From IMG/VR virus record IMGVR_UViG_3300027323_000059, positions 1-32,911 of that record: a stretch of DNA of 32,911 nucleotides; one strand, 5' to 3'. This document shows, one piece after another, positions 553 through 31,888 of the stretch. Position numbers and translations under genes: made by a program. The first letter of the stretch is position 1, and each line of letters begins with the position of its first letter. Origin of the DNA: a virus (taxonomy: Duplodnaviria > Caudoviricetes). The notes below the pieces were generated by a model that made no database searches, was not told the origin of the DNA, and worked only from the letters and a program-made list of their open reading frames with translations.

Positions 553-561
553 TATCTCACC

Positions 562-2735: not shown

Positions 2736-2760
2736 GATGAGAAATCAGCATGCGTGGACT

Positions 2761-2777
2761 TTATAAACCAAAGTCAG
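2761..2777 (-). promoter_or_regulatory. Viral late promoter copy (CTGACTTTGG-TTTATAA)
   Basis: Motif starts 42 nt upstream of ATG 2735 and contains the TGA stop of the upstream gene. Confidence 0.75.
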
Positions 2778-3091
2778 AGCTTAGCCACCACTATGGCGTC
2801 GTTAATGTCAAATCTGCGAGCCGATTTTCCTGTGAGGGGATACTTCGAGAAGACAACGAGCACCCTGTCCCCTTCTCGAAGAGCTTTGCTGATTACCGCG
2901 CCCTGGGCATCGTGGTCGTGGAGGTATTTGAGGTTCTCGGTGAAGGGCACGTCGAAGAGCTCGGTATCCTCGCCGTCCTCAAGGCGAAGGTTGCATGAGT
3001 TGCCACTTACAAGAGTAACCACTGCGGTGCAGGCCGTGTATATGCCCCTGAGCTTCCTCTCTATCCTTTCATCGATGAGCTTTGGGATCAT
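2774..3091 (-). CDS. Short baseplate spike, OB-fold domain only (gpV/Gp138 N-terminal-like)
   Basis: L.DVP, L..GD.VLVVFS and RRFDINDAI motifs; lies between the hub and the gp25-like gene. Confidence 0.75.
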   Translation of the reverse strand: MIPKLIDERIERKLRGIYTACTAVVTLVSGNSCNLRLEDGEDTELFDVPFTENLKYLHDHDAQGAVISKALREGDRVLVVFSKYPLTGKSARRFDINDAIVVAKL

Positions 3092-3900
3092 ACCGCCTTC
3101 ACCTCGAGTTCGCAGTAGTACTCCTCCCCACGTGCTATTTTCCTGTAGCTCACCACTCTGAATAGCCCCGTCGCCTTTATGCTGTCCAGATCAATGATTG
3201 AATCCTGCATGATCTTCCAGAGCATCAGGGTCCTTAGCCTGTAGTCCGCTTCACCATTCTCCTTTCTGATCTTCTGAACTTCCAGCAAGCCGGTCTCAGC
3301 CGTGAGTATGAAAGCTTCCTCATGCCTCGTGTTCTCCTCAACGAAGAAACCCATGCCGTTCTTGACGTAGTGTTTAAACCTCTTCCCGCTTAGCTCCTCT
3401 ATCTCTTTAGCTAGGTAGCTGAGCAGCTCCGATATGCTCTTTTTCCCCGAGGTCCATGTTTGGGTGAACTTTAGCCCTATGTGCTCCACCCTACCCACTG
3501 GCACGCCTGCAAACTCGAAGAGCTTCTCCACGACCTCCTCAAAAGTTGTGCCCCTGGGAACGGTGAGCTTTACCTCTGTTGTAAGGAGATTGGCGGTGTC
3601 GTCCTGGGCAAATATCTGAGTTGCCACATCTGCGCCCTTGAGCTCGTCCACTACTTCTTTGATCACTCCGGAGAAAATGATGCCGTAGTCCTCTGCATAC
3701 CCCGCCTTCAGTGTGATCCGCTCGCTTGGCTTCAGCTTCTGTTTCGTAGTCTCAGCCAAGTTGTAGATGGTTATCTCGGCAGAGCCTGCCTCCTCGCCGG
3801 TGCTGTTCTCTACCACGAACTCTATGTCAAGCTGCTCGCTGGTGATTACCACGTCGCCAACTTCAATAGCTATGTAGCGGTTCCAGAAAGTGCTATTCAT
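3088..3900 (-). CDS. Baseplate hub protein (gp27/gp44-like)
   Basis: A.ITIYNL...T, I.L.AGY...YG.IF.G.I and ETGL motifs. Confidence 0.82.
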   Translation of the reverse strand: MNSTFWNRYIAIEVGDVVITSEQLDIEFVVENSTGEEAGSAEITIYNLAETTKQKLKPSERITLKAGYAEDYGIIFSGVIKEVVDELKGADVATQIFAQDDTANLLTTEVKLTVPRGTTFEEVVEKLFEFAGVPVGRVEHIGLKFTQTWTSGKKSISELLSYLAKEIEELSGKRFKHYVKNGMGFFVEENTRHEEAFILTAETGLLEVQKIRKENGEADYRLRTLMLWKIMQDSIIDLDSIKATGLFRVVSYRKIARGEEYYCELEVKAV

Positions 3901-4192
3901 CCCAGAACACCCATGCCTCGACGTTCTCCTTGCTCAGCGAGTATGGCATAAGGGTAAAGAGCAGCTCGTAGTTCTGAGGGTCTCTCACTTCGTAGGGATT
4001 GAGCTCCACCAGCTTGGAGTTGAATACAACCGCGCCGTCCTCTACTCTGACGATTTTAAGCCTGACAAATTCGCCTAGGGAGTTCCAAGAATAATAGAGC
4101 TGGTAGGCTTTGTCTGCTATCTTCACCCGCTGCTTCTGCGGCAACCCTAAGTTAGATTCGAATGGCAGGACTCCATCAGGCAAAGAGACCAC
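3893..4192 (-). CDS. Small baseplate protein (plug-like)
   Basis: 99 aa with Y.L...WN motif; sits between the Dit-like gene and the hub. Confidence 0.6.
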   Translation of the reverse strand: MVSLPDGVLPFESNLGLPQKQRVKIADKAYQLYYSWNSLGEFVRLKIVRVEDGAVVFNSKLVELNPYEVRDPQNYELLFTLMPYSLSKENVEAWVFWDE

Positions 4193-4706
4193 CCACCCAT
4201 GAGATTAGACTCTCAAGCCAGTTCTTCCCCTGCTCTTTCTGCGGCTTGTTTTGGTATGAGATCTCTTTAGGAGATACGGCTGTATCGCCTCCAGGAGGCT
4301 CTTCTCCTGTTTCTATCTCCGCACTCGTGGCTGGGTCCTCAAATTTGACCACTCGAGTCTTGAGCTCTGCTCGCCTGATCTGCTTGATGCGGATCTCTGC
4401 TTTGTATGCGTTTACTCCCGCCGGCGAGAGGTCAAAGCTGGTAATCACCATATCGTCGAGGTCTTCCAGCTCTGATTCAAACCTCACCAGCTGCTTGGAC
4501 TCGTAGAGCTTCCTGAGCGCTTCAAGTTCCTTGCTATCCTTAAAGAGCATGACAGAAATAGAGAACTCCTTCGGCTCGAGAATGATGTGATCTGCTACTG
4601 AGAACTGGCGCTCAGTGCGGTGTTCTGGTACCTGTGCGCTTTGGCTGAGGTCGAGGACCTGCGTGGCCGTGAGTTCCACGCCGCCGAGCTTTATGATCTC
4701 TGGCAT
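4176..4706 (-). CDS. Tail tube initiator / Dit-like baseplate protein
   Basis: VPEH..E....V.DH...EP motif and 'DMVITS...I.IKQIR'; directly after the tape measure gene. Confidence 0.78.
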   Translation of the reverse strand: MPEIIKLGGVELTATQVLDLSQSAQVPEHRTERQFSVADHIILEPKEFSISVMLFKDSKELEALRKLYESKQLVRFESELEDLDDMVITSFDLSPAGVNAYKAEIRIKQIRRAELKTRVVKFEDPATSAEIETGEEPPGGDTAVSPKEISYQNKPQKEQGKNWLESLISWVGGLFA

Positions 4707-4732
4707 GATAAAAAAATCAGAGAGACGGGAGG

Positions 4733-4749
4733 TTATAAATCGAAGTCAG
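4733..4749 (-). promoter_or_regulatory. Viral late promoter copy (CTGACTTCGA-TTTATAA)
   Basis: Motif starts 43 nt upstream of ATG 4706. Confidence 0.7.
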
Positions 4750-4768
4750 AAAATTTCCCGTGAAATAT

Positions 4769-6517
4769 CTAGCTATATGCGAGGAGTCTCTGTATCTTCT
4801 TTATGGCTAAATCCGCTGCTTTCTCGGGATCGCTTACGCCTTTGATGACCACCGCACCAGGCTTGATCTCTATTTTTCTCTGGTTCACTGTGGTTGTCCT
4901 GGTCACTGTCGTGGTGGAAGCTACCAGCTCTCTCGGCGAGGGAACCAATCCGCCAGCTGCGAGTTCCCTTGCCAATTTCACCCCGCCTATCCCTGGCATG
5001 AGATAGCTTGCTATTCTGATAAATGGTTTGATTCTCTCATAAGCGTTTGTAAGAACATCAATCAACCACTGAATCTTAGAGCTTACCCATTCAGCAGCTT
5101 TGCCCAAATATTCTCTCAATCCTCTGGCCAATGAGGTTACTATGGCTCTGAATTTATCTGACTTAAACCACAGTGTTGTTAGAATTGCTCCTAATGCCAG
5201 TAGCCCGATACCAATTGGTCCTAAAGCTGTCCACAAACCAATAGCAGCAACTCTCAGCAAATTCAGAGCGCCGCCAAATAATTTGGTTGCGATATTGGCG
5301 GCACTTAGGGCTTTAGAGTAGATAAACGTAGCCGCTGTAGATGCAAGCATGACAATTCGATTAGTTTTAAGAGCTACAGTTAGCCCGTTCGTCTGAACTG
5401 AAGCCCAAAAAGCTTTGATGCCTAGAACGCCCAAGGCGGTGCTAACTGGACCCGCAATGATGCCTAGAGCGCCCAACGCAGAGGCTAATATAAGCCCCGC
5501 TGCGGCGAACTCTTTTAGCAATGGCACTTTATCAAGAGTGCGCAGGAGCTGTGCAAGAATAGAAGCAGCTTTACCTACAGCTGGATATAAGGTTTTCCCA
5601 AGTTCAGTAGAGAGGTCATCTATCGCTGCACGTGCGGCCATCATCTTACCGATGTTTTCCTTCATTATCTCATTTTCCTTCCCTAACTTATCTGCCATCT
5701 GCTCCTGGATTGCAAGCATTATGACCCTTTGCTTCTGCTCTGCATTAAGTTGTGACAGCCTTTTGCCATAGAGTTTAAGGGCGATGTGGTTGACTGCGTT
5801 CTCTCTTAGCTGTAATCCGATTCTCTCTGCAAGTTCCGCCTCTCCATATTTCATCGCCCTTACCATGGCAATGAAGGCAAGTTGTAAGTCCTCACCAAAC
5901 ATTGCTGCAGCAGATTTTGCATAGGGAAGAAGGGTCTCAAGTTCTTCTCTGGTGAGACGGTTGGCCTTAGCATAGGCGAGAGTTGCTGCGATATCAGACT
6001 TCGAAAAAAGCCCTCCCTTATTTTTTTCAATCAAAGATAGATAATATTCATACTCTTCTGCATTATCAGCAGTGAGCGCCCGCAGAGTTGCTAAAGATTT
6101 CTCGTACGTTTGTGCCTTCCAGAGTAGCCCACTCATAGTAGCGGTAGCTGCAACTCCCATTGCTTTTAGTTGTTGCGCATGTTCCCTTGCAAACCGCCCT
6201 ACCTTTCTAAGTTCTGGTGCTAATACCTCCCTTTTATACTGTTTAACTTTCCATTTTAGATTTATATAAGCTTGGGCAAGCTTTTTGACTGCCCTATTAT
6301 GTTGCTGAGATACTCTAATAATGTCTTTTTCAATTGTATCCATTTCTCTAAAGAATTTAGCTACACTCCCCATTTGCTTGCCTAATTTTTCCGCGCTACT
6401 ACCCACTTTCTGGAATTGTTTATGCACTGCATCAGAACTTTTCATTATTTTCAACATCTTCCCAGATGCGGTGTCATGAAGTCCGATCCTAAGAAAGAGG
6501 TCTCTTACTGAAGGCAT
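4769..6517 (-). CDS. Tail tape measure protein
   Basis: 582 aa, Ala/Leu/Gly-rich and helical; N-terminal 'L.LRI...D.AS'; hydrophobic segments, 'LGPIG' and W/F-spaced repeats; upstream of the Dit-like gene. Confidence 0.88.
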   Translation of the reverse strand: MPSVRDLFLRIGLHDTASGKMLKIMKSSDAVHKQFQKVGSSAEKLGKQMGSVAKFFREMDTIEKDIIRVSQQHNRAVKKLAQAYINLKWKVKQYKREVLAPELRKVGRFAREHAQQLKAMGVAATATMSGLLWKAQTYEKSLATLRALTADNAEEYEYYLSLIEKNKGGLFSKSDIAATLAYAKANRLTREELETLLPYAKSAAAMFGEDLQLAFIAMVRAMKYGEAELAERIGLQLRENAVNHIALKLYGKRLSQLNAEQKQRVIMLAIQEQMADKLGKENEIMKENIGKMMAARAAIDDLSTELGKTLYPAVGKAASILAQLLRTLDKVPLLKEFAAAGLILASALGALGIIAGPVSTALGVLGIKAFWASVQTNGLTVALKTNRIVMLASTAATFIYSKALSAANIATKLFGGALNLLRVAAIGLWTALGPIGIGLLALGAILTTLWFKSDKFRAIVTSLARGLREYLGKAAEWVSSKIQWLIDVLTNAYERIKPFIRIASYLMPGIGGVKLARELAAGGLVPSPRELVASTTTVTRTTTVNQRKIEIKPGAVVIKGVSDPEKAADLAIKKIQRLLAYS

Positions 6518-6541
6518 AGAAAACTTTTTTATAGGCCCTAT

Positions 6542-6558
6542 TTATAAAATAAAGTCAT
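6542..6558 (-). promoter_or_regulatory. Viral late promoter variant (ATGACTTTAT-TTTATAA)
   Basis: Motif starts 41 nt upstream of the TMP ATG 6517 and overlaps the start of the divergent gene at 6557. Confidence 0.65.
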
Positions 6559-6784
6559 GGGGGTAGCTACTGGATACACAGTTGGTTTTATTCTGCTATG
6601 GTTGGTAATAATCACAATAGTGGATGCACTTACATCAAATACTCTAATACTGTGGGCGGTGGCATACGGATTAATTGGAGTATATTTTGCGGGTTTATTT
6701 AAAATTAGCAAAAGTTCAGGGATTGCGGGAAGTGTAGTTTTTATAATCATTCTAACTGTGGCTCTTATACTTAAAGTGTGGTGA
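6557..6784 (+). CDS. Small membrane protein (about 3 TM helices)
   Basis: 75 aa and almost entirely hydrophobic; first gene of an AT-rich insert. Confidence 0.7.
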   Translation: MGVATGYTVGFILLWLVIITIVDALTSNTLILWAVAYGLIGVYFAGLFKISKSSGIAGSVVFIIILTVALILKVW

Positions 6785-6789
6785 AAAAT

Positions 6790-7401
6790 ATGTCAGAAAA
6801 GTTGGTCTCTTCAAAAGATGCTCAAAAAATTATGGAAGAAATCAAGGAGAAAGCAAAAGATGAGGATACACATTTGGAATGCTTAGACTTGATAAAGCGA
6901 CATTTAGATACACTCCCGATTGAAGCTTACTTCATAGCAAAGGAACTCTCAAAATCAGATGACATTTCAATAAAAGAAAAAGCAAAACAAATTTTGAGTG
7001 AATATCATGAAAAATACCCTGAGCTTGATAGATTAGAAAAAAGTTTGGCGAATACTATGGCAGCTATTTCGTCAATCTCTAAAACAATATCTCTATATAG
7101 AGAGCTTCAAATTCCTGTTCTAAAAACTTTGAAAATCGCTCAGCAATTCGCAGAAGTCCATCAGAATTTAAGCAAAGTCTTACCCAAAATAGAAAAATTA
7201 CAGCTACAATATGAGAAACTACCAATTTATTATACAAGTTATCGCACAGACAGGTTGGCGAATATTGAGGCGAAATTGGATGAGATATATCAAGAAATAC
7301 AAGAATTAAAAAAAGCTAGGAGTATTGATAAGGAGGAATATGAGAGATTAAAAAAGAGACTGAAAGAGCTAGAGGAAGATGTGGATAAAGCATATCAGTA
7401 A
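6790..7401 (+). CDS. Hypothetical helical / coiled-coil protein
   Basis: Long AT-rich ORF; GGTGA RBS before ATG 6790; heptad-rich C-terminus. Confidence 0.75.
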   Translation: MSEKLVSSKDAQKIMEEIKEKAKDEDTHLECLDLIKRHLDTLPIEAYFIAKELSKSDDISIKEKAKQILSEYHEKYPELDRLEKSLANTMAAISSISKTISLYRELQIPVLKTLKIAQQFAEVHQNLSKVLPKIEKLQLQYEKLPIYYTSYRTDRLANIEAKLDEIYQEIQELKKARSIDKEEYERLKKRLKELEEDVDKAYQ

Positions 7402-7648
7402 TAACCCCGATGCCCAGGACTGCAACATCAACGTGATTGCCAAGGCTTTGCAGACAACCGAACAATAAATTTTATATATCAAAGAGTTGGTGTAACTATA
7501 CGAAAGTATAGGTATATACAATATACAATAAACATATACGGTGATATGGGTATAAGTTATGATAGATGATAGAGATATAGGTATATGATATAGTTGGGTG
7601 GGCGCAAAAAGGTGAGGTAATTAATGATGTAAGGTTGGAGGCTAATAC

Positions 7649-8404
7649 ATGGCGTCCGTTAATGTTGTTTCTGTTTATCATCCAAAAATTGGTGTGTATC
7701 ACCCTTCTGGACCATCTTTTGGCAGACCCAGTAAAGAGGAATTTATTAGAGAATGGAAAGCACTGCCATTCTTTAAATACAATGAACTTGAAATATTCGA
7801 AGAAGAGACTTTAAACAAAGTAGACAAAATGTTAAAAGAGATGGAACCTTTTATTATAAAATATTCTGATTACATTGAGATCACAGTTAAGACCATGGGA
7901 TCTAAATACAACATGTATGACCATATTACAAAATTGCATTACGAAAACTTATTCAAAGATTATGCTCATATTTATGGATTTGAGTATGTTATAAAATTTG
8001 CCCATTTATTATATATTGATGATTCCATTATAAGATTCTTTCCAGAATTAGAAATAAAGCCTAAAATCCCAACACTTAAGTCGATAATAATTGCTGGATT
8101 ATATGACGAAATTTTTGATTGGGTATTTGCTATGGAGAAGATATATAGGTTCTTTATTCATAGAAGAGATAAAAACTATGTAATAAAAACAATAGATTGG
8201 CTTTATGAGGAGGCTCCTAAAGTTATAGAAACTGCTATAAATAATGGTTGGTATCTACCTATCTCCCCAACCAGGATTACCTCAACAAATACAGATAGAC
8301 TTAAGAATAAAATTATTACAAGTTGGAGAAGAAACAGAAATGTGAGTCCAGGGTTACTAGTAGAATATTTCTATTCTGTAGAATTGGGGAGGTTTAATGA
8401 GTAG
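7649..8404 (+). CDS. Hypothetical protein (251 aa, AT-rich insert)
   Basis: GGAGG RBS; long ORF in AT-rich DNA; no family recognised. Confidence 0.75.
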   Translation: MASVNVVSVYHPKIGVYHPSGPSFGRPSKEEFIREWKALPFFKYNELEIFEEETLNKVDKMLKEMEPFIIKYSDYIEITVKTMGSKYNMYDHITKLHYENLFKDYAHIYGFEYVIKFAHLLYIDDSIIRFFPELEIKPKIPTLKSIIIAGLYDEIFDWVFAMEKIYRFFIHRRDKNYVIKTIDWLYEEAPKVIETAINNGWYLPISPTRITSTNTDRLKNKIITSWRRNRNVSPGLLVEYFYSVELGRFNE

Positions 8405-8939
8405 ACACTTAAGTTTTGTTATTAAAGAGATTGATAAGATAGTTGAAAAATTAAGGAACGAAATTGAAACACGATGGAAAGAAGTCTATATGAATTTATC
8501 CATTAGAGGTTTTTTTTACGACGAGAAAAAGATAGTACTTGAGAACTTTGAGTTTTTTGATTATGAATCAAATAAAATAGTCAATAAATTTTTTACCAAT
8601 ACGAAACTCGAAATAGTCTTCCATCCAGTGGGGAGATCGCCTCGATCAAGAAAATATATACCTGAAAAAATGTTTGAAAGTATTTCAATGGTTTTAGTGT
8701 GTGGTAATGGGGCTACCATACCCTACAAGTGGGAACCTAGAGGAGGGGAATATGGGACCCTAAAGAAAGATGATCGTATAATAATGTCTGAAGGTATGAC
8801 AGCATTCGAGGCAATTCAATTGATTTTGGAAGATGTGTGTAGGCGTGAAATTTCTCAAAATTGGAAAGACAAATCAGAATGTAAACAACCTTCAGAATAT
8901 CATTTACAAAAAATAGCACAATTTTACAATAATGAATAG
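8397..8939 (+). CDS. Hypothetical protein (180 aa, AT-rich insert)
   Basis: GGGAGG RBS; overlaps the previous stop; no family recognised. Confidence 0.75.
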   Translation: MSRHLSFVIKEIDKIVEKLRNEIETRWKEVYMNLSIRGFFYDEKKIVLENFEFFDYESNKIVNKFFTNTKLEIVFHPVGRSPRSRKYIPEKMFESISMVLVCGNGATIPYKWEPRGGEYGTLKKDDRIIMSEGMTAFEAIQLILEDVCRREISQNWKDKSECKQPSEYHLQKIAQFYNNE

Positions 8940-9122
8940 CTAAGAAAACCTGAACGTGTGTCCCTCTGAGCTATCAATAGTAATTGCCTTAACTTTTTCA
9001 TGCTTCTGCTTGAAATATTCAAGCCACTCTAAAACACGGTGAATGGGCAGCTTATTGACCCTTTCCAATTCTAAGTCGCCGAATTGTTCAGCTAAAAAGT
9101 AAAGATGAAACTTAGATTCTAC
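8940..9122 (-). CDS. Frameshift extension of the tail assembly chaperone (gpGT-like T part, 60 aa)
   Basis: Open -1 frame VESKFHLYFLAEQFGDLELERVNKLPIHRVLEWLEYFKQKHEK...RFS* begins at a slippery A-run and has no start codon of its own. Confidence 0.78.
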   Translation of the reverse strand, partial: VESKFHLYFLAEQFGDLELERVNKLPIHRVLEWLEYFKQKHEKVKAITIDSSEGHTFRFS

Positions 9123-9430
9123 TTTTTTTTAATGTGACGCAATGCCTCCTCAGAGAGACCCAGAGAATTTTCGACTTCGTTGACCAATACTGCTAACACA
9201 CCAGGTTTTAATTTTGCTGCGTTAATATCTGGCTCTATCACAGCAGCTTGGACGAGCTTATGGCTGTACTTTTTCCTGTCAAAATCACTTCCACGGCTGC
9301 AGGATTCAAGGATATCATAGTACTCTCCGGAACTCAGTTCCTTTAGCTTGAATTCCACTCCGTTCACTTCGATTGTTATAGGATCGTCTGCCACATATAT
9401 CTTAGAATAATCAATGCCCTTCTTTGCCAT
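9119..9430 (-). CDS. Tail assembly chaperone (gpG-like)
   Basis: 103 aa after the tube gene; 'F.LKELS..EY' and 'AVIEP'; ends ATT AAA AAA AAG TAG. Confidence 0.82.
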   Translation of the reverse strand: MAKKGIDYSKIYVADDPITIEVNGVEFKLKELSSGEYYDILESCSRGSDFDRKKYSHKLVQAAVIEPDINAAKLKPGVLAVLVNEVENSLGLSEEALRHIKKK

Positions 9431-9440
9431 CTACACCACC

Positions 9441-9845
9441 TCAGTACTCGATATCGAAGTTTGTGCCTATGAACTTCCAGCTCCACGTGGGCTCCTCTGC
9501 CTCGGGCTTGAACTCCGGCCAGGAGAAGTGGCAGTCGTCGATGCTCATCTTCGAGAAGCCCGTTGCCTCTTTGTTGTTGCTCTTCACAACGACCTGCACG
9601 CCGCGCTTGGCTTTGACGATGTCCATGAGCAGCTGGTTGGTCTTGCTCTGCGCCTTTAAGCCGATGGTGCCCTCTGCGTCGGTGTCATCCTTCACGTTCC
9701 AGCCTATTGTTCTATTGCTCCAGTCCTTCACTGGCGTTACGTTGTCCTCTCCTTTGGGCGTGATGGTGAGTTCTGCGATGTCTTCCACTTCAACGCCGTC
9801 GATAAAGACGGTTACATCCTTAACGCTATACTCCACAAGCGCCAC
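9441..9845 (-). CDS. Tail tube protein
   Basis: YS.KDV.V.IDG start; about 134 aa; between sheath and chaperone. Start set at GTG 9845 after GAGGTGA (ORF extends to 9854). Confidence 0.8.
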   Translation of the reverse strand: MALVEYSVKDVTVFIDGVEVEDIAELTITPKGEDNVTPVKDWSNRTIGWNVKDDTDAEGTIGLKAQSKTNQLLMDIVKAKRGVQVVVKSNNKEATGFSKMSIDDCHFSWPEFKPEAEEPTWSWKFIGTNFDIEY

Positions 9846-9855
9846 TTCAATCACC

Positions 9856-10935: not shown

Positions 10936-10985
10936 CTCTTACTTCCTCCAGTTTCGGCTTTTAAGCTTAAGCTGAATGCAGAGGT

Positions 10986-11002
10986 TTAAAAAGGAAAGTC
11001 AG
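10986..11002 (-). promoter_or_regulatory. Viral late promoter copy (CTGACTTTCC-TTTTTAA)
   Basis: Motif starts 67 nt upstream of the sheath ATG; the leader carries GGAGG. Confidence 0.75.
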
Positions 11003-11006
11003 AAAA

Positions 11007-11549: not shown

Positions 11550-11572
11550 GATAAGCACTCACAGCACAGAAC

Positions 11573-11589
11573 ATAAAAAGCAAAGTCAG
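11573..11589 (-). promoter_or_regulatory. Viral late promoter copy (CTGACTTTGC-TTTTTAT)
   Basis: Motif starts 40 nt upstream of ATG 11549 and contains the upstream TGA stop. Confidence 0.75.
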
Positions 11590-12822: not shown

Positions 12823-12823
12823 G

Positions 12824-13144: not shown

Positions 13145-13153
13145 TTCCCCTCC

Positions 13154-13441
13154 CTACTCGGCGTTTTCTTCAGGTTCGCTTTTCTCTGGTCCCTTTGGCT
13201 TGCTTTCCTCAGCCTTCTTGCCCTTTCCCTTTTTCTTGGGCTTCTCCTCAGGTGCTGGCTTGCTCTCCACCGGCTCGAGGTCGATAACGACGAGGTTGCC
13301 GTTCTTCAATGCATCGCGCTCCGCAGGCGTCTGAAGCTTCTCGTCCGCTGGTATCTTGCCCCTGTCGCCCCTCTTGCCTCGCAGGTGCTTGCTCTCGAAG
13401 TGTGCGGCTCTGATTTCCACAAGCAGTTCATTCTTTGGCAT
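13154..13441 (-). CDS. Small head-associated protein with charged low-complexity tail
   Basis: GAGGTGA RBS; directly after the MCP gene; K/E/P-rich C-terminus. Confidence 0.65.
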   Translation of the reverse strand: MPKNELLVEIRAAHFESKHLRGKRGDRGKIPADEKLQTPAERDALKNGNLVVIDLEPVESKPAPEEKPKKKGKGKKAEESKPKGPEKSEPEENAE

Positions 13442-13488
13442 CTACATCACCTCAAAACATATTTCCCGGAAAATGGAAAGAGAGGCGC

Positions 13489-14367
13489 TTACGCCTTCAA
13501 GCCGGTGATCTTGCAGATGTACTCTGGGCTGTCGATGACTGGCTCTGCCATGGCGAAGTTGAAGTAGCGGTTGTCTATCATCGGGTTGCCGAGGTTCTCA
13601 CCGGAGACATTGACCGTAGTCAGGGGTATGCTCTCAGCCATAAAGCCTATGTCCTTTCTGCGGATCACGAGCACCACGCCGTCGTCGTTGGGATCAACGG
13701 CCTTATCCTTGATTATGTTGAGCCCTGCGAGGCCAGGGATTACACCGGTCTTGACCACCTGGGCCTGGAGGTAGTTGTTGTTGCGTACCACGTCGAACTT
13801 GGTGAGGCGCTCGTACATTATGGGGCTCATGATGACGTCGGTAGCCTCACCCCCATCCGTAGCGTCGTAGATGAGCGTCTTGGCATGCTCGAGGTCTGCG
13901 ATGGGGTCCCCTGCCGTGGTGTCAGTCCAGTTGGTACCGTCGAATGTGTTTATACCGGTTGCATTGAGCATGGCGTTGAAGATCAGATCGTCCTCAAAGC
14001 GGCGCATCTTGTAAACGCTGCGATTGATCTTTCTGCCCACAGTCTGGACGCGGGAGAATCTGCGCTCCATCAGCGTAACGTCGAAATACGCACCGTAGGG
14101 CCGGATAGGCTTGGCCTTCTTGCCATACTTGAAGTCCAGCTTTGGGAAACCGCCCAGCTCGCTGATCCAGTCCACGTTGCCTACGATGTCACCCTCTTCT
14201 ATCCAGGAGACGGAATCACCCTCGATGCGCTCGGGTCCACTCAGAAGCTGCCTGCCTATCAGCGTCTTTTCGTAGACCTGCTTGACCCTCGCCCTTATGA
14301 CTTCAGGCTTAAGGGCGGGGCTGTCCTGGTATGCTAAATCCTTCTGTGTGAAAGCTGCGGTCGTCAT
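13489..14367 (-). CDS. Major capsid protein (HK97 fold)
   Basis: About 292 aa; WISE.G.FP, YG..F.VT, GDPIADL and .IMSP motifs; follows the protease and decoration genes. ATG 14367 after GAGGTGG (ORF extends to 14376). Confidence 0.88.
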   Translation of the reverse strand: MTTAAFTQKDLAYQDSPALKPEVIRARVKQVYEKTLIGRQLLSGPERIEGDSVSWIEEGDIVGNVDWISELGGFPKLDFKYGKKAKPIRPYGAYFDVTLMERRFSRVQTVGRKINRSVYKMRRFEDDLIFNAMLNATGINTFDGTNWTDTTAGDPIADLEHAKTLIYDATDGGEATDVIMSPIMYERLTKFDVVRNNNYLQAQVVKTGVIPGLAGLNIIKDKAVDPNDDGVVLVIRRKDIGFMAESIPLTTVNVSGENLGNPMIDNRYFNFAMAEPVIDSPEYICKITGLKA

Positions 14368-14377
14368 CTCCACCACC

Positions 14378-14848
14378 TCATATCAGCACGAGCACCTTGC
14401 TACCATCGGCTCCGCCCTTCCAGCAGATGCCGATGGGGTCGCGGTAGTCTATGGTGTGCGTTGCGGTGCCGCCTTCGTCGATAGTCTCTGGGGGCAGCGC
14501 CTTCACTCTGCCTGGGTTGGTTGTGCTCGTGGTAACGGCGTCTCCAGCGTTGATCGCACCCTCCGCGGTGAACTCAACGATAGCCCTGAACTTCGTGAGC
14601 ACGGAAACGCGGTGCCTGGAGTCAAGCCCTTCGGGTGCAGAGCTCTCGTGGATGCTCGAAACGAGCACGCCTATCGCCTTACCAGAGGTGGTTGCCTTGC
14701 CCACGGTTTCGTCGGCAACGATCTCCACGAGATCCCCAGCCTTGTAGTAGTAGCCGTCGGCGTCCTTGGTCTGCGTGGTATCCACCTTCGCGCTCAGGAT
14801 ACCTTCAGGGAGGTACCCCCTTACAGGTGAAGCTGCAGTCTCCACCAT
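14378..14848 (-). CDS. Capsid decoration / cement protein (DUF2190-like)
   Basis: AGD.V, AIGV, A.GAI.AGD.V and IG..W motifs; directly before the MCP gene. Confidence 0.78.
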   Translation of the reverse strand: MVETAASPVRGYLPEGILSAKVDTTQTKDADGYYYKAGDLVEIVADETVGKATTSGKAIGVLVSSIHESSAPEGLDSRHRVSVLTKFRAIVEFTAEGAINAGDAVTTSTTNPGRVKALPPETIDEGGTATHTIDYRDPIGICWKGGADGSKVLVLI

Positions 14849-14849
14849 C

Positions 14850-15179
14850 TTAGCTCACCCCCACTTCAACCGGGCCGAAGTACTTCTCGGCAAGCTCAAA
14901 CGGGTCCTCGGCTTTGGCTGCGTTGTCCCTGCTCTTCTCGGTGCTCTGGGTTTCCACCATGCGCTTCTTGAGGTCCGCCTTGTACTTCTCCAGCTGCTCC
15001 CTGTTGAGCGACTTCAGGAAATCCCTGTCAACCTCAGGGTAAATCGCGATGATCTCCGCGCGGAGCTCGGTCAGCTCTTCGATTTTCTTGATCTTCGCTG
15101 CGAACTCCTGCTTGACCTCCTCGAGCTTCTGCTCGTACTCTTTCTTGAGGTCTGTCTTGATTTTCTCTATTTCTTCCAT
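14850..15179 (-). CDS. Nested in-frame scaffolding protein (109 aa)
   Basis: Internal ATG 15179 (MEEIEKIK) preceded by GGAGGT (15186-15191) and by a late-promoter copy at 15220-15235. Confidence 0.7.
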   Translation of the reverse strand: MEEIEKIKTDLKKEYEQKLEEVKQEFAAKIKKIEELTELRAEIIAIYPEVDRDFLKSLNREQLEKYKADLKKRMVETQSTEKSRDNAAKAEDPFELAEKYFGPVEVGVS

Positions 15180-16208
15180 GCTTAGACCTCCTTTGTTGTT
15201 GAGTTCCGAGCCTTCTGTATTTAAAGCAAAGTCAGATTTGGCGAAGTTTGCCTCTGGAGGCTCTTTTTCGAATTCTCTGTAGTGAGCTGCGAGATGGTTG
15301 TACACCTTGCGCTTATCTGCCGCGGGAATGTCAACGCCACCACGGGCGCCCATGAGTGCTGCCATTGCTGCGCGAACACCGTTCCACACCACGGCGCCGT
15401 CGCTAGGGCGGTGATGCGGCAACTTGAGGTCTGTGAATGCGTTGGGCGGCATCTTCGGAGCCCAAGCGAAGTGCTGGGCTATTCTGCGCTTCTCCGCATC
15501 GCTCAGCTCATCCCAACGCTTGCTGGTGAAGTCCTCAAGGCGAGGCTTTTCCCAGGGTGTGTCCTCGCTCGCCTTGCGGTAGTTTGGCGGGTTGCTCGGC
15601 ACCACGCCAAAGTCGAATATTTCCCGGGAAATATCGGCACCTCTGGAATTGGAGATCAGCCTGGCATTGGGATCAGCGGGCTCGTTTACCACGGCGATGT
15701 GCACCAGGGTCATGTCAGCAAGGTACTCCCCTTCTGCGTCCTGCTCTATTCTGCCCCTCACCCTGACGGAGAAGAAGGTGTTCTCAGGGTCTAGCTTCAC
15801 GCGCTCTGCAACCTCTCTGAGCATGGGCGTGGTGTTCCAGAACTCCACGTCTGCTATTGCCGCCTGCAGCCCCTTCTCAGGGTCCTTGCCGAACTCGAGG
15901 TTGTAGGTGGCTCCGACTTTGTCCAGGAAGCTATCGCTGTGGTCCAGAACAAGAGGCACCTTGAAGTACTTCCTATTCTCCTGCTCTTTCACCTCAATGG
16001 CACGCCGGACCATCGCCTCAATTTCATTAGCCCGGAACTGTATGCCGTTGTGTGTGCCTTCGGTGACAGCGATGATCCTGCGCTTTAGTCCCCTCGAGGT
16101 GTCCTCGTTCTTCAGGTCAACCACTGGGACGAAGTCGCCTTTCTCTGCACAAAAGCCCAAGCAATCGGCAACCCTTACAGTGAAGTCTACTGTAACCTCG
16201 TCGCTCAT
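14850..16208 (-). CDS. Prohead protease with extra domain and C-terminal scaffold
   Basis: PLVLDH (His), FSV (Ser) and HIAVV..PAD..A motifs; middle domain LKLPHH...GARGG...HLAAHY; coiled-coil C-terminus. Confidence 0.82.
   Translation of the reverse strand: MSDEVTVDFTVRVADCLGFCAEKGDFVPVVDLKNEDTSRGLKRRIIAVTEGTHNGIQFRANEIEAMVRRAIEVKEQENRKYFKVPLVLDHSDSFLDKVGATYNLEFGKDPEKGLQAAIADVEFWNTTPMLREVAERVKLDPENTFFSVRVRGRIEQDAEGEYLADMTLVHIAVVNEPADPNARLISNSRGADISREIFDFGVVPSNPPNYRKASEDTPWEKPRLEDFTSKRWDELSDAEKRRIAQHFAWAPKMPPNAFTDLKLPHHRPSDGAVVWNGVRAAMAALMGARGGVDIPAADKRKVYNHLAAHYREFEKEPPEANFAKSDFALNTEGSELNNKGGLSMEEIEKIKTDLKKEYEQKLEEVKQEFAAKIKKIEELTELRAEIIAIYPEVDRDFLKSLNREQLEKYKADLKKRMVETQSTEKSRDNAAKAEDPFELAEKYFGPVEVGVS
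15220..15235 (-). promoter_or_regulatory. Intragenic late promoter copy (CTGACTTTGC-TTTAAA)
   Basis: Motif lies inside the protease gene, 56 nt upstream of the nested ATG. Confidence 0.72.
15617..15634. repeat. Perfect 18-bp palindrome ATATTTCCCGGGAAATAT
   Basis: Read directly; near-copies at 4751-4768 and 13459-13476. Confidence 0.8.
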
Positions 16209-16232
16209 GAATAAAGGCTGAGGAGAAGTAGC

Positions 16233-16249
16233 TTAAAAAGGAAAGTCAG
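16233..16249 (-). promoter_or_regulatory. Viral late promoter copy (CTGACTTTCC-TTTTTAA)
   Basis: Motif starts 41 nt upstream of the protease ATG 16208. Confidence 0.78.
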
Positions 16250-16265
16250 ATAGTGGTTGTAGAAT

Positions 16266-16658
16266 TTAGCAGTCGGTGGTATCTTTTCTGTAAAGCCACC
16301 ATGTTAACCAGTCTGCTGTAAAAGATAACAACCAAACTAAAATCAGTTTGTACCACGGCCATAGTCCTCTCATGATATCAATAAATTTGATTATAGTAAG
16401 AGAGAGAAGAACCGCGAATATTCTAAAGTGATAGTACGTGTACGCCTCTTGATTTTCTTCCCATCTTCCCCAACGAATGCGGACGATTAATCTTGCGGGA
16501 ATAAACAACAAGTAGCTTGCAACAATCGCCAAGACTATCTGCTTCAATAATTTATAATTAATAAACTGATCGCCAAGGATTACATAAAGAGCGAAATAGC
16601 CAATTACAAAATGATTGACCAAATTACGAGAAGTCAAATCCTTTATGTTAATATCCAT
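16266..16658 (-). CDS. AT-rich membrane protein (about 4 TM)
   Basis: Four hydrophobic stretches; GAGGGGG RBS; AT-rich codons. Confidence 0.72.
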   Translation of the reverse strand: MDINIKDLTSRNLVNHFVIGYFALYVILGDQFINYKLLKQIVLAIVASYLLFIPARLIVRIRWGRWEENQEAYTYYHFRIFAVLLSLTIIKFIDIMRGLWPWYKLILVWLLSFTADWLTWWLYRKDTTDC

Positions 16659-16677
16659 ACTACCCCCTCTTACAACC

Positions 16678-16950
16678 CTAGAAAAGCTCTACTAAGATAC
16701 CATCCTCCCTCAGATAGACAGAGCACCAGTCCATGTCGTAATCTGTGAGTTTCAATTCTCTGTATACCTCCTCGGGAAGGGTGATATAATCAGCGCCGTT
16801 CTCCCTTATGATCTCCACCTCAATGTCGCCCCTCCCTAAGACTAACCCTGTTCTGTTGTTTACGTACGCTGCTCTAATTTTGCCTTCTGCAGGTCGTTTC
16901 TCTGGATTTTTGAGCAGCTCGTCCCCGTAGCTTATTCGGAGCCTCTTCAT
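16678..16950 (-). CDS. Putative immunity / antitoxin protein with AbrB/MazE-like C-terminus
   Basis: Coupled (ATGA overlap) to the MuF gene; 'YITLPEEVYRELKL...V.LREDGILVE' resembles the AbrB swapped-hairpin pattern. Confidence 0.5.
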   Translation of the reverse strand: MKRLRISYGDELLKNPEKRPAEGKIRAAYVNNRTGLVLGRGDIEVEIIRENGADYITLPEEVYRELKLTDYDMDWCSVYLREDGILVELF

Positions 16951-18221
16951 TTCAACTCCTCTTTAAATCTCATCTTAAGCTTCTCAACTTCTTTCCTTTT
17001 TGTAATGACAAATGAAGTTTTAATTTTTCTGTCAGGTGTCAATATTATATAAACTGGGCGCTGATATATTTTAGATTTTCCATGCAATAAAAATTCTCCG
17101 GTATCAGGATCGCGTCTTACCCATTCCGGGCTCTTTTTTATGCTGAAAACATCTGACAGGGAGTACCTCCTCCCATCCTGCACCATGTGCCTGTATGATG
17201 AAGCGGTACCGTGAAATGTGGAGTGCCTGAGAGAGATTCCAAGGATCTCTTTAGCTTTTGCTTGCGGGCTTTCCCCGGTAATGGAAAGGAGGGTGCGCAT
17301 GTCTTCGCTTTTCTTAAACCTCTCTATGAGGTAGTTAAGCTGCTCATCATAGGAAGGAGGTGCTAAGCCTTTTCTGTCGAATGGTTCTAGATACTTCCCA
17401 AGAGAATCGAGACCCTTCTCTCTCTGCCATTCCTGGGCCCATTTTTTCTTCTCCTGCTCGAAAACCTCTTGAGGCGTGTCAAGCTTGGGATCGTCGAAGT
17501 ATGGCGAGGGCCTGCATCTACAGTTGGGCTCGCTCATTACGCGGAGGGCGAGCTCTTCTTCTGCTGTGCCAACCTCAAATACTCTGCCGTGAAGAGCTAA
17601 GTGGTGCGGCCTGGTGCGTTCATCTGCTACGCTGCGATACCTCCACTTTCGCAGGCCAGCGGCGACGTAGCCCTCGCGGTGCCCCAGGGCGTAGGCTTTC
17701 TTTACGTTGGTCCTTGCGAGGAGATCGGCGTAGTCGTCAAGCTTCAGCGTCTTTGTGCGGGTGATTTTAACCTGCCTGACTCTGAGCCTGCCTCTGCGGT
17801 CAATGTAGATCTCTTCCCTTAGCTTTCCACGCCTGTCAAAGTGAATCTCCTCGCCGAAGGTTGTTCTTAGCCTTTCCTTTAGCCTTGCAGAGATTTCGTC
17901 GTAGGTAAGTCCCTCCCGGATGCCTTCCTCGATGACGCTCTTAATGTCGCGCTCGAGGAACTCGTACATCTCTTTTATTGCTGGCGCTACATCCTGCTCT
18001 ATGAGCTTCTCGAGCGCTCTGATCTCCAAGCTGGTGATGCGCACGTCAGCGCCAACTTCTTTGAGCGCCCTCTCTGCGCCGATGTAGTAGCTGACGGTGA
18101 GAAGCTTGGCGAGCTTTTCAACCGCGCGCTTCCTTGATTCTGCTGTCTTCCTGAGAAGCGCTTCCTCAATGGCACGGATCGCATCTTCCTCATCCTTGCT
18201 GAGGAAATCGTAGAGCTGCAT
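16947..18221 (-). CDS. Minor head protein (Mu gpF / SPP1 gp7-like) with C-terminal putative nuclease-toxin domain
   Basis: WRY.SV.D.RTRP.H..LHG...EPNCRC MuF signature followed by an extension of about 185 aa; directly after the portal gene. Confidence 0.85.
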   Translation of the reverse strand: MQLYDFLSKDEEDAIRAIEEALLRKTAESRKRAVEKLAKLLTVSYYIGAERALKEVGADVRITSLEIRALEKLIEQDVAPAIKEMYEFLERDIKSVIEEGIREGLTYDEISARLKERLRTTFGEEIHFDRRGKLREEIYIDRRGRLRVRQVKITRTKTLKLDDYADLLARTNVKKAYALGHREGYVAAGLRKWRYRSVADERTRPHHLALHGRVFEVGTAEEELALRVMSEPNCRCRPSPYFDDPKLDTPQEVFEQEKKKWAQEWQREKGLDSLGKYLEPFDRKGLAPPSYDEQLNYLIERFKKSEDMRTLLSITGESPQAKAKEILGISLRHSTFHGTASSYRHMVQDGRRYSLSDVFSIKKSPEWVRRDPDTGEFLLHGKSKIYQRPVYIILTPDRKIKTSFVITKRKEVEKLKMRFKEELK

Positions 18222-19613
18222 TCAGTCGAAGACCTCCAGGAGCTCTTTCCGGAGGCGATGGATTTCTTCCGCGAACTCTTCTCTGACGTCAACGCTTCCG
18301 GTCAGCACGGGCTTTGGCACGCCCTTCTGAGTTGCGAGGTCCACCTTTGCGCTGAACTCTTTTTCCTCCTCTTTTGGCACTGGGTAGCCGAGCTCGTCGA
18401 AGAGGCGCTTGATCTGCGACTTGGTCATGTAGGGCAGGTAGGAAGCCATCACCGCAGCCCAGCGCACCTCATCGCGTGGCGTGAGGTCTTCGAATACCAT
18501 CTCCGGTGGCTTCGCTTTGGGTCCGAGCTTCTTCCTGACATAGGGGATTATGATCCTGTCCTCGATGACGACCTTGAAGATGTAGCGCTCTGGTCTAATA
18601 TCGCGTTCAAAGAACTGGAGCTGCACCTCACCAACAGAGCGGTTGCTGCTCTTGCTCTCGGTGAAGCTGTCGCTGAAGCCCATGCCGGCGATTACCTGGT
18701 CCTCTATATGCTCCTGAGCTTTGATCGTCGCTAGGGGATTGCCTTTCGGCTCGAGTATTTCAACCTCCATGCCCTCGGGGATCCAGAGGTCACCGCCCGC
18801 TTTCAACATGTTTTTGATTTTGCTCTGGAGTTCCTCAATGCGATGCCACCAACGTTCAGGAACTTTAAACTTGTGCTTGTGGTCCACGAAGCGCTTGAGC
18901 ATGATCGCCTGGTACTTCTCCGTGCCGAGCTTGTTCATGATATTGGCGTAGTTCTCCCTGAGCAGACTGACACCGTCGGGGGCGTCGTAGTCGGGATAGC
19001 GCGGGATGAAGATAAGCTCCTCAGGCTTGAAGAATACCGCCTTGCCCTCCTCAGCCCTCTTGAAGTGCTGCACGAAGCCTATGATGTTGTCACCGCTGCC
19101 CTCTTTGATGTTGCTCCTGTCCACATTCGGGAAGTGACGCTTCAGGAAGTCCCGGAGCTCACGCACATCGTCCTCGTTGTCTCTGAAAACGCGGACTGTC
19201 ATCGGGTTAACGCGCTTGATTTTGATGATGTCCTCTACAACATTGTTCCCGATGCGCTTCTTCTCCCACACCACTTCCAGGAAGCAGCGTCCATATTCAA
19301 GCCAGTCCTTGAAGGCGAGCACGAGAATTAGATCAAGGTGGGTGCGCCGGCGCATCTTCTGCACCAATTCCAACGCCTTGTCGTCATCGCCAGAGAAGTC
19401 GAAAGCCATTGCATTCTTAGCTAAGCTTCTAATCATCCTCGCTATTTTGCCCTGCTTCGCAGCCCAGGCGCACCACTTATCCCAGCCGCCCTCTGGCTCA
19501 AAGTCGGGATTATAAATTTTATCATCCGCAGCCTTTGCAACCCCTTTCAGAAGCTCCGCGAGAGCCAGGTCCATTCTCGAAGATTTCGGCTTCAGCAGGT
19601 CAAAGATGCTCAT
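18222..19613 (-). CDS. Portal protein
   Basis: 463 aa after TerL; 'L.YG..FLEVV', 'NP.TV', 'F.PEELIFI....D...G.SLL' motifs. Confidence 0.88.
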   Translation of the reverse strand: MSIFDLLKPKSSRMDLALAELLKGVAKAADDKIYNPDFEPEGGWDKWCAWAAKQGKIARMIRSLAKNAMAFDFSGDDDKALELVQKMRRRTHLDLILVLAFKDWLEYGRCFLEVVWEKKRIGNNVVEDIIKIKRVNPMTVRVFRDNEDDVRELRDFLKRHFPNVDRSNIKEGSGDNIIGFVQHFKRAEEGKAVFFKPEELIFIPRYPDYDAPDGVSLLRENYANIMNKLGTEKYQAIMLKRFVDHKHKFKVPERWWHRIEELQSKIKNMLKAGGDLWIPEGMEVEILEPKGNPLATIKAQEHIEDQVIAGMGFSDSFTESKSSNRSVGEVQLQFFERDIRPERYIFKVVIEDRIIIPYVRKKLGPKAKPPEMVFEDLTPRDEVRWAAVMASYLPYMTKSQIKRLFDELGYPVPKEEEKEFSAKVDLATQKGVPKPVLTGSVDVREEFAEEIHRLRKELLEVFD

Positions 19614-19647
19614 GAAACATCACCAGAGTTCCCTCTGCGGGAAAGGC

Positions 19648-19664
19648 ATAAAAAGCAAAGTCAG
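19648..19664 (-). promoter_or_regulatory. Viral late promoter copy (CTGACTTTGC-TTTTTAT)
   Basis: Motif starts 51 nt upstream of the portal ATG and contains the TerL TGA stop. Confidence 0.75.
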
Positions 19665-20995
19665 AAGAAGGGCCATTCGTCGATGTCTGGAAGCGATGGC
19701 TCGTGGAATGCTCCAAATACAGCAAGAGCTAGGGCCATGACGCAGTCGTCGTGCATGCCTTCGTGAGCTTCCATTTTCAGGCTACCCGAGCTCGTGCGGA
19801 CGTACTCGAAGTACTTGAGCTCGTTGATCAGCTCGGGGATGTTGGGGAAGATGACCTTGCGATTGTCTATTGCAGCCGCTAACCTCTCCACCAGGATTGT
19901 CTTTGGCACCTTGGTGATGTTTCCCTGCTGAGTTATTGCGGTGCCACCCGTGATGGTTATACCTCGTGCTATGTGCTGGACCATCTCCAGCAAGGGGTCG
20001 CCGGCGCCAGTGCTGTCCACAACTATTGCCTGGGGCGAGAATCTTGCATGGATGTCCTCGATTCTCCTGGCTATCTCTCCCCAGGGGAGGCGCTGGAAGC
20101 GGTCAAAGTATATGAGCTTCGCTGGCTCCTGGGCAATATCTATGCCGATGATTACGGTGTAGTCGAGGTACTTCGCCACGTCCACGCCGAAGACGAAGCG
20201 CTGCTTGGCATGGGTCCTACCCTCGAGGAGCTCTATATCTTCTTCGATGCACGCCTGAATGCTGCGCCATGGGAAGACAGCATTCTGGTCGTCTATGAAC
20301 TCCGCCATGTACTCGGTGCGGAAGCGGATGCTGTTCTCCCCGTATTCTTTCTTCTTGCGCTCTATGTATTCCCTGGAGATGTGCGGGTTTACCCAGGATG
20401 GGAACTGGTAGCTGCTGTAGTACTCATTTCTCTCGAGCCCCCTGATGAATGAGTCATAGAAGTGGTTTCTTCCCGCAGGGGTGCCAATCTTGATCAGGTC
20501 TCCGTCATAGTCAGCGAGCATTGGCTCAATTACGTTGGTGACCGCCTCGTCCTTAATGTAGCCCGCTTCGTCGAGGATTATGCGGTGCGCCTTATGGCCT
20601 CGCAGGTTCTGAGGCTTGTCAGCGGAGCGGGCATGAATAATTGAGCCTGTAAGAAAGCGGAGCTTCGGGAAGGGAGTGTAGACCACCTTATCCACCAGCT
20701 GAATGAGCGGCGACCTGGAAAGCAGCCTGACGATGGTGTCAAAGATAATCTGTGCCTGGTCGTAGGTTGGGGCGATGATGAACTGAATGCTTCCAGGGTG
20801 CGCTATGGCATAGTGGATCGCGGAGACTGCCATGCACTCGCTCTTGCCGAATCTTCGTCCTGCTGCGACTGTGAGGTTCTTTGCCCTGTCCCTGAGGATT
20901 TGCTCCTGCGCTTCGTGAGGTGTCCAGCCAAGCAGCTTTTTTGCAAAGGTGACGGGATCCCTGAGAGGTTTAGCCAGCTTCTTCGTCCTCAGCAT
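19661..20995 (-). CDS. terL: Terminase large subunit
   Basis: Walker A AGRRFGKS, APT..QA, LRG, Walker B IILDEA, IGTP.G.N.F; nuclease motifs GVDVAK..D and HDD.VMALALA. Confidence 0.96.
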   Translation of the reverse strand: MLRTKKLAKPLRDPVTFAKKLLGWTPHEAQEQILRDRAKNLTVAAGRRFGKSECMAVSAIHYAIAHPGSIQFIIAPTYDQAQIIFDTIVRLLSRSPLIQLVDKVVYTPFPKLRFLTGSIIHARSADKPQNLRGHKAHRIILDEAGYIKDEAVTNVIEPMLADYDGDLIKIGTPAGRNHFYDSFIRGLERNEYYSSYQFPSWVNPHISREYIERKKKEYGENSIRFRTEYMAEFIDDQNAVFPWRSIQACIEEDIELLEGRTHAKQRFVFGVDVAKYLDYTVIIGIDIAQEPAKLIYFDRFQRLPWGEIARRIEDIHARFSPQAIVVDSTGAGDPLLEMVQHIARGITITGGTAITQQGNITKVPKTILVERLAAAIDNRKVIFPNIPELINELKYFEYVRTSSGSLKMEAHEGMHDDCVMALALAVFGAFHEPSLPDIDEWPFF

Positions 20996-21401
20996 AGAGG
21001 ACCTCCAGGAGCTCCTTCACAGGGTTGTTGACGTCGCCGGAAATCTCGTACTTGAGCTTCATTGCCTGGACAGCGGCTGCGGTTATCTTCTGAAGGTCGC
21101 TCGGGTCGCTGGTGATGTCAAGCAGAGCATCCGCTTTGGCCTTGACCTTCTCAAGGAACTCGAGGTCGTCAATGACCTTGCGCTTCCCCTCCTCAAGTTG
21201 CTTCTGAAACTCTTTCACTGCCTCGGGCACTACCGGGAAATGGCGCTTGTGGTTGGTGATGTTCGCCTTGCTGAGCCCCGGGATGTGCTTCTCAAGCTTG
21301 GCGATGATCTCGCTGTAGGGTCTGCCTTCGATGAGCATCTGGTTAACTTTGTCGGCATGCCCGCTACGGCAGATCTTGCATTTAGGATTGTAAAGGTTCA
21401 T
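20970..21401 (-). CDS. terS: Terminase small subunit
   Basis: Overlaps the TerL start; N-terminal CKIC plus HTH with H..H; helical oligomerisation region. Confidence 0.75.
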   Translation of the reverse strand: MNLYNPKCKICRSGHADKVNQMLIEGRPYSEIIAKLEKHIPGLSKANITNHKRHFPVVPEAVKEFQKQLEEGKRKVIDDLEFLEKVKAKADALLDITSDPSDLQKITAAAVQAMKLKYEISGDVNNPVKELLEVLYAEDEEAG

Positions 21402-21426
21402 ATAGATTCGTCAAGGTTCGTTTAGG

Positions 21427-21443
21427 TTAAAAAGGAAAGTCAG
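21427..21443 (-). promoter_or_regulatory. Viral late promoter copy (CTGACTTTCC-TTTTTAA)
   Basis: Motif starts 42 nt upstream of the TerS ATG 21401. Confidence 0.78.
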
Positions 21444-21811: not shown

Positions 21812-21821
21812 TGCCTATTAG

Positions 21822-31873: not shown

Positions 31874-31888
31874 ACTTTCTCCTCCAGT

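Follow-up and report, generated by a model that had tools for sequence, protein, structure and literature searches.

To our knowledge, archaeal viruses have no RNA polymerase of their own. The bacteriophage late activators, such as Ogr of P2 and RinA, are small proteins (Ogr binds zinc) whose genes lie near the morphogenesis module, the late promoters being read by the host polymerase. For archaeal viruses, the redirection of the host polymerase to late genes has been called an open question in a review (PMC5569661) and, for the myovirus HF2, in PMC8707807. Class II repeats in the late region of HF2 have been shown to be promoters, for which the authors propose viral factors (PMC8707807), and the rudiviruses SIRV1 and SIRV2 carry a GTC element downstream of the TATA box, as reviewed in PMC5569661. 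In Pyrococcus furiosus, the activator TFB-RF1 occupies a site adjacent to a weak transcription factor B recognition element (BRE) and recruits TFB (PMC5937170). The present analysis concerns a stretch of viral DNA of 32,911 nt (IMG/VR record IMGVR_UViG_3300027323_000059, the whole of which is referred to as the window), which is most of one provirus in the host genome G000 (1,993,079 bp, ~1.99 Mb). Its subjects are an element, GAC followed by a TATA box, that occurs nine times on the minus strand, and an overlapping pair of cysteine-rich genes, A and B, as candidates for its reader.

The element shares traits with each of these systems. As with the HF2 class II repeats described in PMC8707807, it is virus-specific, occurs solely within the morphogenesis module of an archaeal myovirus and is conserved in relatives; HF2, however, has two near-identical 29-bp copies and one long transcript, whereas the window has nine short copies, predicted to give mostly leaderless transcripts, and a candidate factor. 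Like the rudiviral GTC, it is a virus-specific word of three bases in a constant position next to TATA, but its GAC lies 6-8 nt upstream of TATA, and GTC directly follows TATA at only one of the nine sites (2777); a rudivirus-like GTC position is instead found in a sister class of viruses (G140, G036) discussed below. With the TFB-RF1 promoters it has in common a weak BRE at the TATA box and a putative regulator site just upstream, and recruitment of TFB is also the mechanism proposed here; on the account in PMC5937170, however, TFB-RF1 is a host factor with a palindromic site, TCTG-N5-CAGA, upstream of the BRE, whereas the word in the window is short and not palindromic and extends over the edge of the BRE, with a viral pair of cysteine-rich proteins as candidate factor. 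Ogr and RinA belong to bacterial sigma-70 machinery, and A/B has no sequence match to these families among the matches listed. From the sequence comparisons that follow, the nine elements are, with high confidence, real, conserved and virus-specific late promoters, their promoter activity being predicted. These promoters probably depend on a viral activator, and the A/B pair is the best candidate for that role, being slightly favoured over the alternatives taken together.

All nine minus-strand sites listed in a preliminary description of this DNA were verified, with 5' ends at the higher coordinate of each element in Table 1, as were the distances from the first base to the ATG and the ribosome-binding site (RBS) leaders at the three sites with longer spacings (11002, 15235 and 19664). 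At site 19664 an out-of-frame ATG lies at 44 nt, ahead of the portal start. The motif word proposed there had to be relaxed: exact CTGACTTTSC is present at six of the nine sites, and the common denominator of all nine is TGACTT-N3-TTTWWA, not one fixed word. Likeness among the nine sites stops at the TATA box, after ~16 nt. Transcription presumably starts at or next to the ATG at six sites. The claimed restriction to the morphogenesis region was borne out, all nine copies lying between 2757 and 21443, ahead of or inside morphogenesis genes. When the host genome was scanned, TGACTT-N3-TTTWWA was found nine times on both strands of the 1,993,079 bp, with 9/9 in the window and on one strand, and the looser TGACTT-N3-TTTWW 13 times, nine of them in the window. 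Shuffling the window 200 times, with dinucleotides roughly kept, gave a mean of 0.005 matches and a maximum of one, and distant terminase loci, 732,519 bases in all, had no match. As the pattern had been derived from these nine sites, independent support is drawn from the relatives and the distant loci.

One element lies inside the protease frame and likely gives the C-terminal scaffold part of this gene separately, from a transcript of its own. The internal site is kept in L007, L008, G062, G063, G065 and G066. This scaffold start (14850-15235) is leaderless in relatives and has a leader in the window.

It had been proposed that a fixed pyrimidine-rich 10-mer takes the BRE position; the conserved part turned out to be GAC at -8 to -6 from the TATA box, together with lost BRE adenines. 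Of 238 host TATA-like boxes lying 28-32 nt ahead of an ATG, 57% have A at -4 and 58% at -3, and 6/238 have GAC at -10 to -6. The nine viral sites all lack A at both -4 and -3, that is, none has a purine-rich BRE, in contrast to the early promoter of the same virus, which is of normal form, as previously described, with AAAG before its TATA box. At six sites the TATA box starts 30-33 nt before the ATG, the distance of an archaeal core promoter; because this TATA-to-ATG distance is that of the host, it is simplest to suppose that TBP and TFB still set the start. The best reading of these sequences is thus of late promoters with a weak BRE that would still be read by host TBP and TFB. The host genome has one TBP and two TFB genes (C2, C15), and the absence of a full viral TFB homologue, noted earlier, was upheld by a genome-wide search for the TFIIB cyclin repeat (PF00382), which found the two genes on C2 and C15 and none on C6. 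A host TFB paralogue with another BRE preference was also considered and is unlikely, since the two paralogues share the same last helix, which we take to be the BRE reader.

Related viruses retain the core of the element at capsid identities down to 37% and record GC of 40-66%. This core consists of YGAC, five mostly pyrimidine bases and TTTWWA, ~38-39 nt before the ATG; positions -8 to -3 before the G of GAC are near background, conservation being limited to YGAC and the pyrimidine spacer. Among 136 unique sites from 26 records (40-66% GC), selected as GAC 7-9 nt before a TATA-like box with an ATG 33-45 nt on, 121 have the ATG at 37-41 nt. A second set of 132 unique YGAC-type sites from 21 records was picked regardless of the ATG; the first ATG downstream of the G, with a minimum distance of 25 nt, fell at 37-39 nt in 93 and at 37-42 nt in 104 of them. 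The complete 42.8-kb record G065, which uses CGAC, has 10-11 sites. A scan of IMG/VR with a 17-base word returned 79 loci: all those with at least two correctly spaced sites belong to this virus family, three loci outside it have one correctly spaced site, and 54 loci have neither. The restriction to the provirus, the comparison with host boxes and the relatives support the earlier reading of a virus-specific, mostly leaderless predicted late promoter with a non-host BRE.

The same site sets bear on the idea that the element is no promoter and consists of a stop codon followed by a T-rich terminator. Archaeal terminators are T-rich, and the motif's TGA doubles as the stop codon of the preceding gene at three of the nine window sites (2777, 11589, 19664) and at 39/132 sites overall. 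TGA is nevertheless not used as a stop in 93/132, 28 sites read CGAC, the distance to upstream stops is scattered as against the fixed distance to the ATG, and site 21443 has no upstream gene nearby, all of which leaves this explanation with hardly any probability. A double role of the T run is possible, in that it may also end upstream transcripts.

Regarding the reader of these promoters, the factors put forward in the preliminary description had to be given up. No homologue of the tandem winged helix-turn-helix protein (27398-28378), the small helix-turn-helix protein (24132-24278) or the XPB-like helicase was found in any related record searched, including the complete G065, and the zinc ribbon (27215-27394) gave weak partial matches only, in G064 and G065. 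Clustering of 4,323 open reading frames (ORFs) from the window and related records left A/B, a pair that the preliminary description does not name, as the only widely shared family without a structural label. A/B is present in 18 of the 23 records that hold this capsid protein; among the five others, three loci end before the slot, one is a sister-class virus and one is a truncated remnant (G009), cut inside the portal gene so that the slot upstream of terS is missing. A/B lies upstream of terS in the clade of the window, and between head-closure and neck genes in other relatives. Another viral factor, or a conserved host factor, could read the element in its place: many related records are fragments, in which a fast-evolving early gene could be missed, and the G009 remnant keeps three to five sites with no A/B match genome-wide. 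Such a factor is nonetheless improbable, as no further non-structural family is widely shared, also in G065 (classed complete) and the long G062 (68 kb) and G064 (128 kb), and the element is absent from host promoters.

The two proteins are small and probably bind zinc. In the window, A and B overlap at 22626-22705 in different frames, and B, whose start is uncertain, is without the N-terminal three-stranded sheet of most relatives. The two could conceivably be joined by a frameshift, as in the fused homologues: A-B is a single protein in G068 and in 9/28 inspected library proteins (of 85 profile-matched representatives). As a promoter of the A/B unit, an AAC-type box 71 nt upstream of the 23511-23711 ORF was considered and dropped, as it is not kept in L014. 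The zinc domain of B is found elsewhere fused to DUF3102, ribbon-helix-helix-like and possible winged-helix parts, and to parts that we take to be ParB-like (P0079, P0093, P0104, P0054, P0085, P0066, P0113).

Comparisons of B with known families place it loosely among treble-clef zinc domains. A profile of B against 177,635 solved-structure sequences gave weak matches of treble-clef type, to the RPAP2 zinc finger (E 0.035), L24e (E 0.25) and YacG (E 1.2), and the family matches among 62 B members include MYND in ten and RPAP2_Rtr1 in six, all under cut-off; with PF04181 scores of 14-17 bits against a cut-off of 33 bits, B is not assigned to RPAP2/Rtr1 by sequence. The Ogr/Delta family (PF04606) is not among the families listed for 18 members, nor among the best 25 of 42 families for the 62 members. 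The model of A is poor (predicted local distance difference test score, pLDDT, 58; best Z 2.6). That of B from the relative G069 is better (pLDDT 91, best Z 5.2), the matched rows covering mainly residues 1-53, the N-terminal sheet that B of the window lacks; it has no Foldseek match at E 0.001, and RPAP2 is not among the matches listed. For a fused A-B protein, the ESM Atlas gave as top feature match an RTR1-type cluster (0.88), which serves as a lead only; for A it gave no usable match. A complex prediction of A and B of G069 with TBP of the window host returned no informative result (score 0.00). Among 50,697 phage records searched for cultured relatives, neither B nor fused A-B had a match, and the capsid match was only 24%. 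A literature search, within the open-access literature, found no description of the GAC-TATA element or of A/B, and the word 'promoter' is absent from the main text of two provirus surveys (PMC11705971 and PMC13573593).

These data also bear on whether A/B replaces TFB, or part of it, in a dedicated late initiation complex. GAC at -8 to -6 is where the BRE contact of TFB would sit, and among solved-structure sequences the B profile matches best, though weakly, the zinc finger of RPAP2, a binder of RNA polymerase II. The provirus, however, has no TFB-family gene, A and B are small and, in the predicted models, without cyclin-like helices, and the part of RPAP2 that touches RPB1 is described as a two-stranded sheet (10.1101/2021.06.18.448918), where the B model has a helix. 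Replacement is therefore quite unlikely. Of the earlier proposal that a viral factor replaces or redirects TFB, the viral reader is retained as the likelier explanation, and the replacement is left unsupported, there being no viral TFB and a host-like promoter geometry.

Searching with B alone among 401 genomes of the phylum of the Archaeoglobales genome matched five genomes. The sites in three of these, G264, G263 and G209, came to light in listings of upstream sequences and with a relaxed pattern. The provirus of G264 is full and has seven sites on its contig, six of them with the ATG at 38-40 nt, and in G263 and G209:C5 an AAC variant, CAACTTTCCTTTTTAT, stands at -38 before portal-like and protease-like genes. 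Scattered copies of CAACTTTCCTTTTTAT, with the ATG likewise at -38, occur outside the main provirus on G263:C1 and in G209 (L195-L206), mostly before short fragments. Several of these fragments resemble the starts of portal-like or protease-like genes, and the scattered copies are probably remnants of earlier integrations.

A natural comparison is offered by the sister class (G140, G036, L288, L290, L291 and L292; L290, L291 and L292 were found by their capsid protein and L288 also by the winged-helix query), which has the head-tail module in common with the GAC class, with terminase identities to the window of 54% (G140) and 49% (G036). In these six records no A/B match was found, and at most one GAC-class site with an ATG. 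G140 and G036 instead carry TTTTAAAGTC ~30 nt before structural ATGs; TATA-GTC precedes structural genes 4-10 times with the ATG at 27-32 nt in five IMG/VR loci, and 11 times in G036. A tandem winged-helix gene lies between the capsid and neck genes of this class (L193:3517-4008 in G140, L190:1927-2427 in G036), and its product is a candidate reader of the rudivirus-like GTC element. Each promoter class goes with a capsid lineage of its own (23% identity between the two lineages), and hybrid sites with both words occur at 2777 in the window and once each in five other loci. The sheath and tube genes of the window (9441-10935) are nearer to those of sister-class viruses than to those of the relatives of its capsid, as after a module exchange: the sheath is 65% identical to the sheaths of G140 and L292, against 25-31% for GAC-class relatives, and the tube is 50% identical to that of G140, with no match to GAC-class relatives. 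The sheath promoter is TATA-GTC in G140 and L292 and GAC-TATA in the window; this sister-type sheath behind GAC-TATA, a single case, suggests that the promoter class goes with the resident candidate regulator and not with the downstream gene.

Several observations weigh against the reading of A/B as activator of these promoters. In G209:C2 and G293, A/B is present, but neither structural genes nor a motif cluster was found in the 80 kb examined; these two either count against a strict link between A/B and the element or are decayed; the G009 remnant is the reverse case. Neither A nor B matches a known DNA-binding family at a significant level, and the usual location of A/B, among neck genes, would equally suit a protein of the particle or of its assembly. 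As the classes follow capsid lineages, the link between factor and element is possibly one inherited event, and the sheath and tube exchange is the only case that breaks this correlation. The use of TGA as a stop codon may help to keep the word, and the related records include near-duplicates (L010/L017/L018; window/L014). According to PMC8707807, the late-region repeats of HF2 need no viral protein for activity in Haloferax volcanii, and IR4 was unaffected by changes to its BRE. This last precedent, with the host-like TATA position and the usual place of A/B among neck genes, speaks for late promoters read by the host machinery alone, with timing set by copy number or by release from read-through silencing, and for a structural or assembly role of A/B. 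The explanation is an unlikely one, since it leaves unaccounted for a GAC fixed at -38/-39 across records of 40-66% GC, the rarity of GAC at host promoters (6/238), and the paired swap with the winged-helix gene and TATA-GTC. The element could alternatively be an operator, with late transcription blocked during lysogeny by a repressor bound over the BRE; repression by occlusion of BRE or TATA is, according to PMC5569661, the mode of action of most regulators characterised in archaea and archaeal viruses. Sites without BRE adenines, however, look weak unaided, and in most relatives A/B belongs to the late region, expected to be silent in a lysogen, so that a repressor appears very unlikely.

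The explanation that fits these data best, and in which a little more confidence than doubt is placed on sequence grounds, is that of a host-type TATA box with lost BRE adenines and GAC at the upstream BRE edge, at which the candidate A/B would recruit host TFB and polymerase. The late promoters would be weak by design and remain silent during lysogeny. Upon induction, read-through from the early side would supply the first A/B which, in relatives with A/B in the late region, would then amplify itself; A/B would bind the GAC edge of the BRE position and help TFB or RNA polymerase to load. Late expression would then proceed from several short mRNAs, mostly leaderless, among them one that encodes the scaffold part within the protease gene.

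Table 1. Features of the window and of sister-class loci; "to ATG" is the distance in nt from the first base of the element.
Feature	Position	Strand	To ATG	Remarks
Morphogenesis module, terminase to baseplate and tail fibre	1..21401	-		Contractile-tailed provirus
Element before gp25-like wedge gene (2370-2735)	2757..2777	-	42	Hybrid: GAC upstream, GTC downstream of TATA
Element before Dit-like gene (4176-4706)	4733..4749	-	43	
Element before tape measure gene (4769-6517)	6542..6558	-	41	Overlaps start codon of plus-strand gene at 6557
Element before tail sheath (9856-10935)	10986..11002	-	67	GGAGG leader; sheath of sister-class type
Element before tail terminator-like gene (ATG 11549)	11573..11589	-	40	TGA is the neck gene stop
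Element inside protease frame	15219..15235	-	56	In-frame ATG 15179 with GGAGG
Element before prohead protease/scaffold gene (14850-16208)	16233..16249	-	41	Same site in relatives
Element before portal (18222-19613)	19648..19664	-	51	TGA is the terminase stop; short GGTGA leader
Element and TATA before terminase small subunit (20970-21401)	21427..21443	-	42	
Gene B, at most 111 amino acids	22370..22705	-		CxNPxC...CSxxC treble-clef-like zinc domain; candidate late activator subunit
Gene A, 76 amino acids	22626..22856	-		Four invariant cysteines; GTG start preceded by GGGAGG; candidate late activator subunit
Early promoter (contrast)	31931..31946	-		Host-type purine-rich BRE
Sister provirus loci	G140:C1:716000-750000 (L192-L194); G036:C29:39000-71000 (L189, L190)			

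Regarding the setting of these features, the minus strand from position 21401 to position 1 encodes, by Pfam and PHROG matches, the terminase, portal, capsid, neck, sheath and baseplate proteins. An ORF that reads as integrase-like from its sequence lies with a tRNA-His ~5 kb beyond the left end of the window, and a 19-base repeat of the tRNA-His lies ~500 bases beyond the right end; from these boundaries the provirus is ~38.8 kb long and looks whole. AT-rich inserted genes, mostly on the plus strand, are found between tail genes (6557-8939) and before terS (21599-22280); they have no family match, and may possibly be morons or defence genes. At 31652-32310, two divergent ribbon-helix-helix genes and five GAACT repeats (31894, 31905, 31916, 31957, 31968) around the early promoter look like a lysogeny switch with its operators. 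G009, whose genome belongs to the same family, has a capsid gene of 93% identity on a contig with the label Candidatus Hydrothermarchaeota, and a 76% relative was found in an Archaeoglobales bin. One contig with the same virus family, archaeal-type promoters and A/B (L102, G066:C128) comes from a bin labelled Bacteroides, and is likely mis-binned.

What is new here is the candidate factor and the paired swap of factor and promoter word. In a more far-reaching and rather doubtful form of the proposal, A/B would be a new zinc-binding heterodimeric initiation factor that reads GAC at the BRE contact of TFB and reaches the polymerase through an RPAP2-like finger, the late genes thereby having a promoter class to themselves, and archaeal tailed viruses would exchange modules of factor plus promoter, either A/B with GAC-TATA or the tandem winged helix with TATA-GTC, and re-fit acquired genes to the resident class. 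With a promoter word, a candidate factor and a natural swap control at hand, the question becomes testable in reconstituted archaeal transcription, and a factor-promoter pair that is not used by the host may provide an orthogonal expression switch for archaea.

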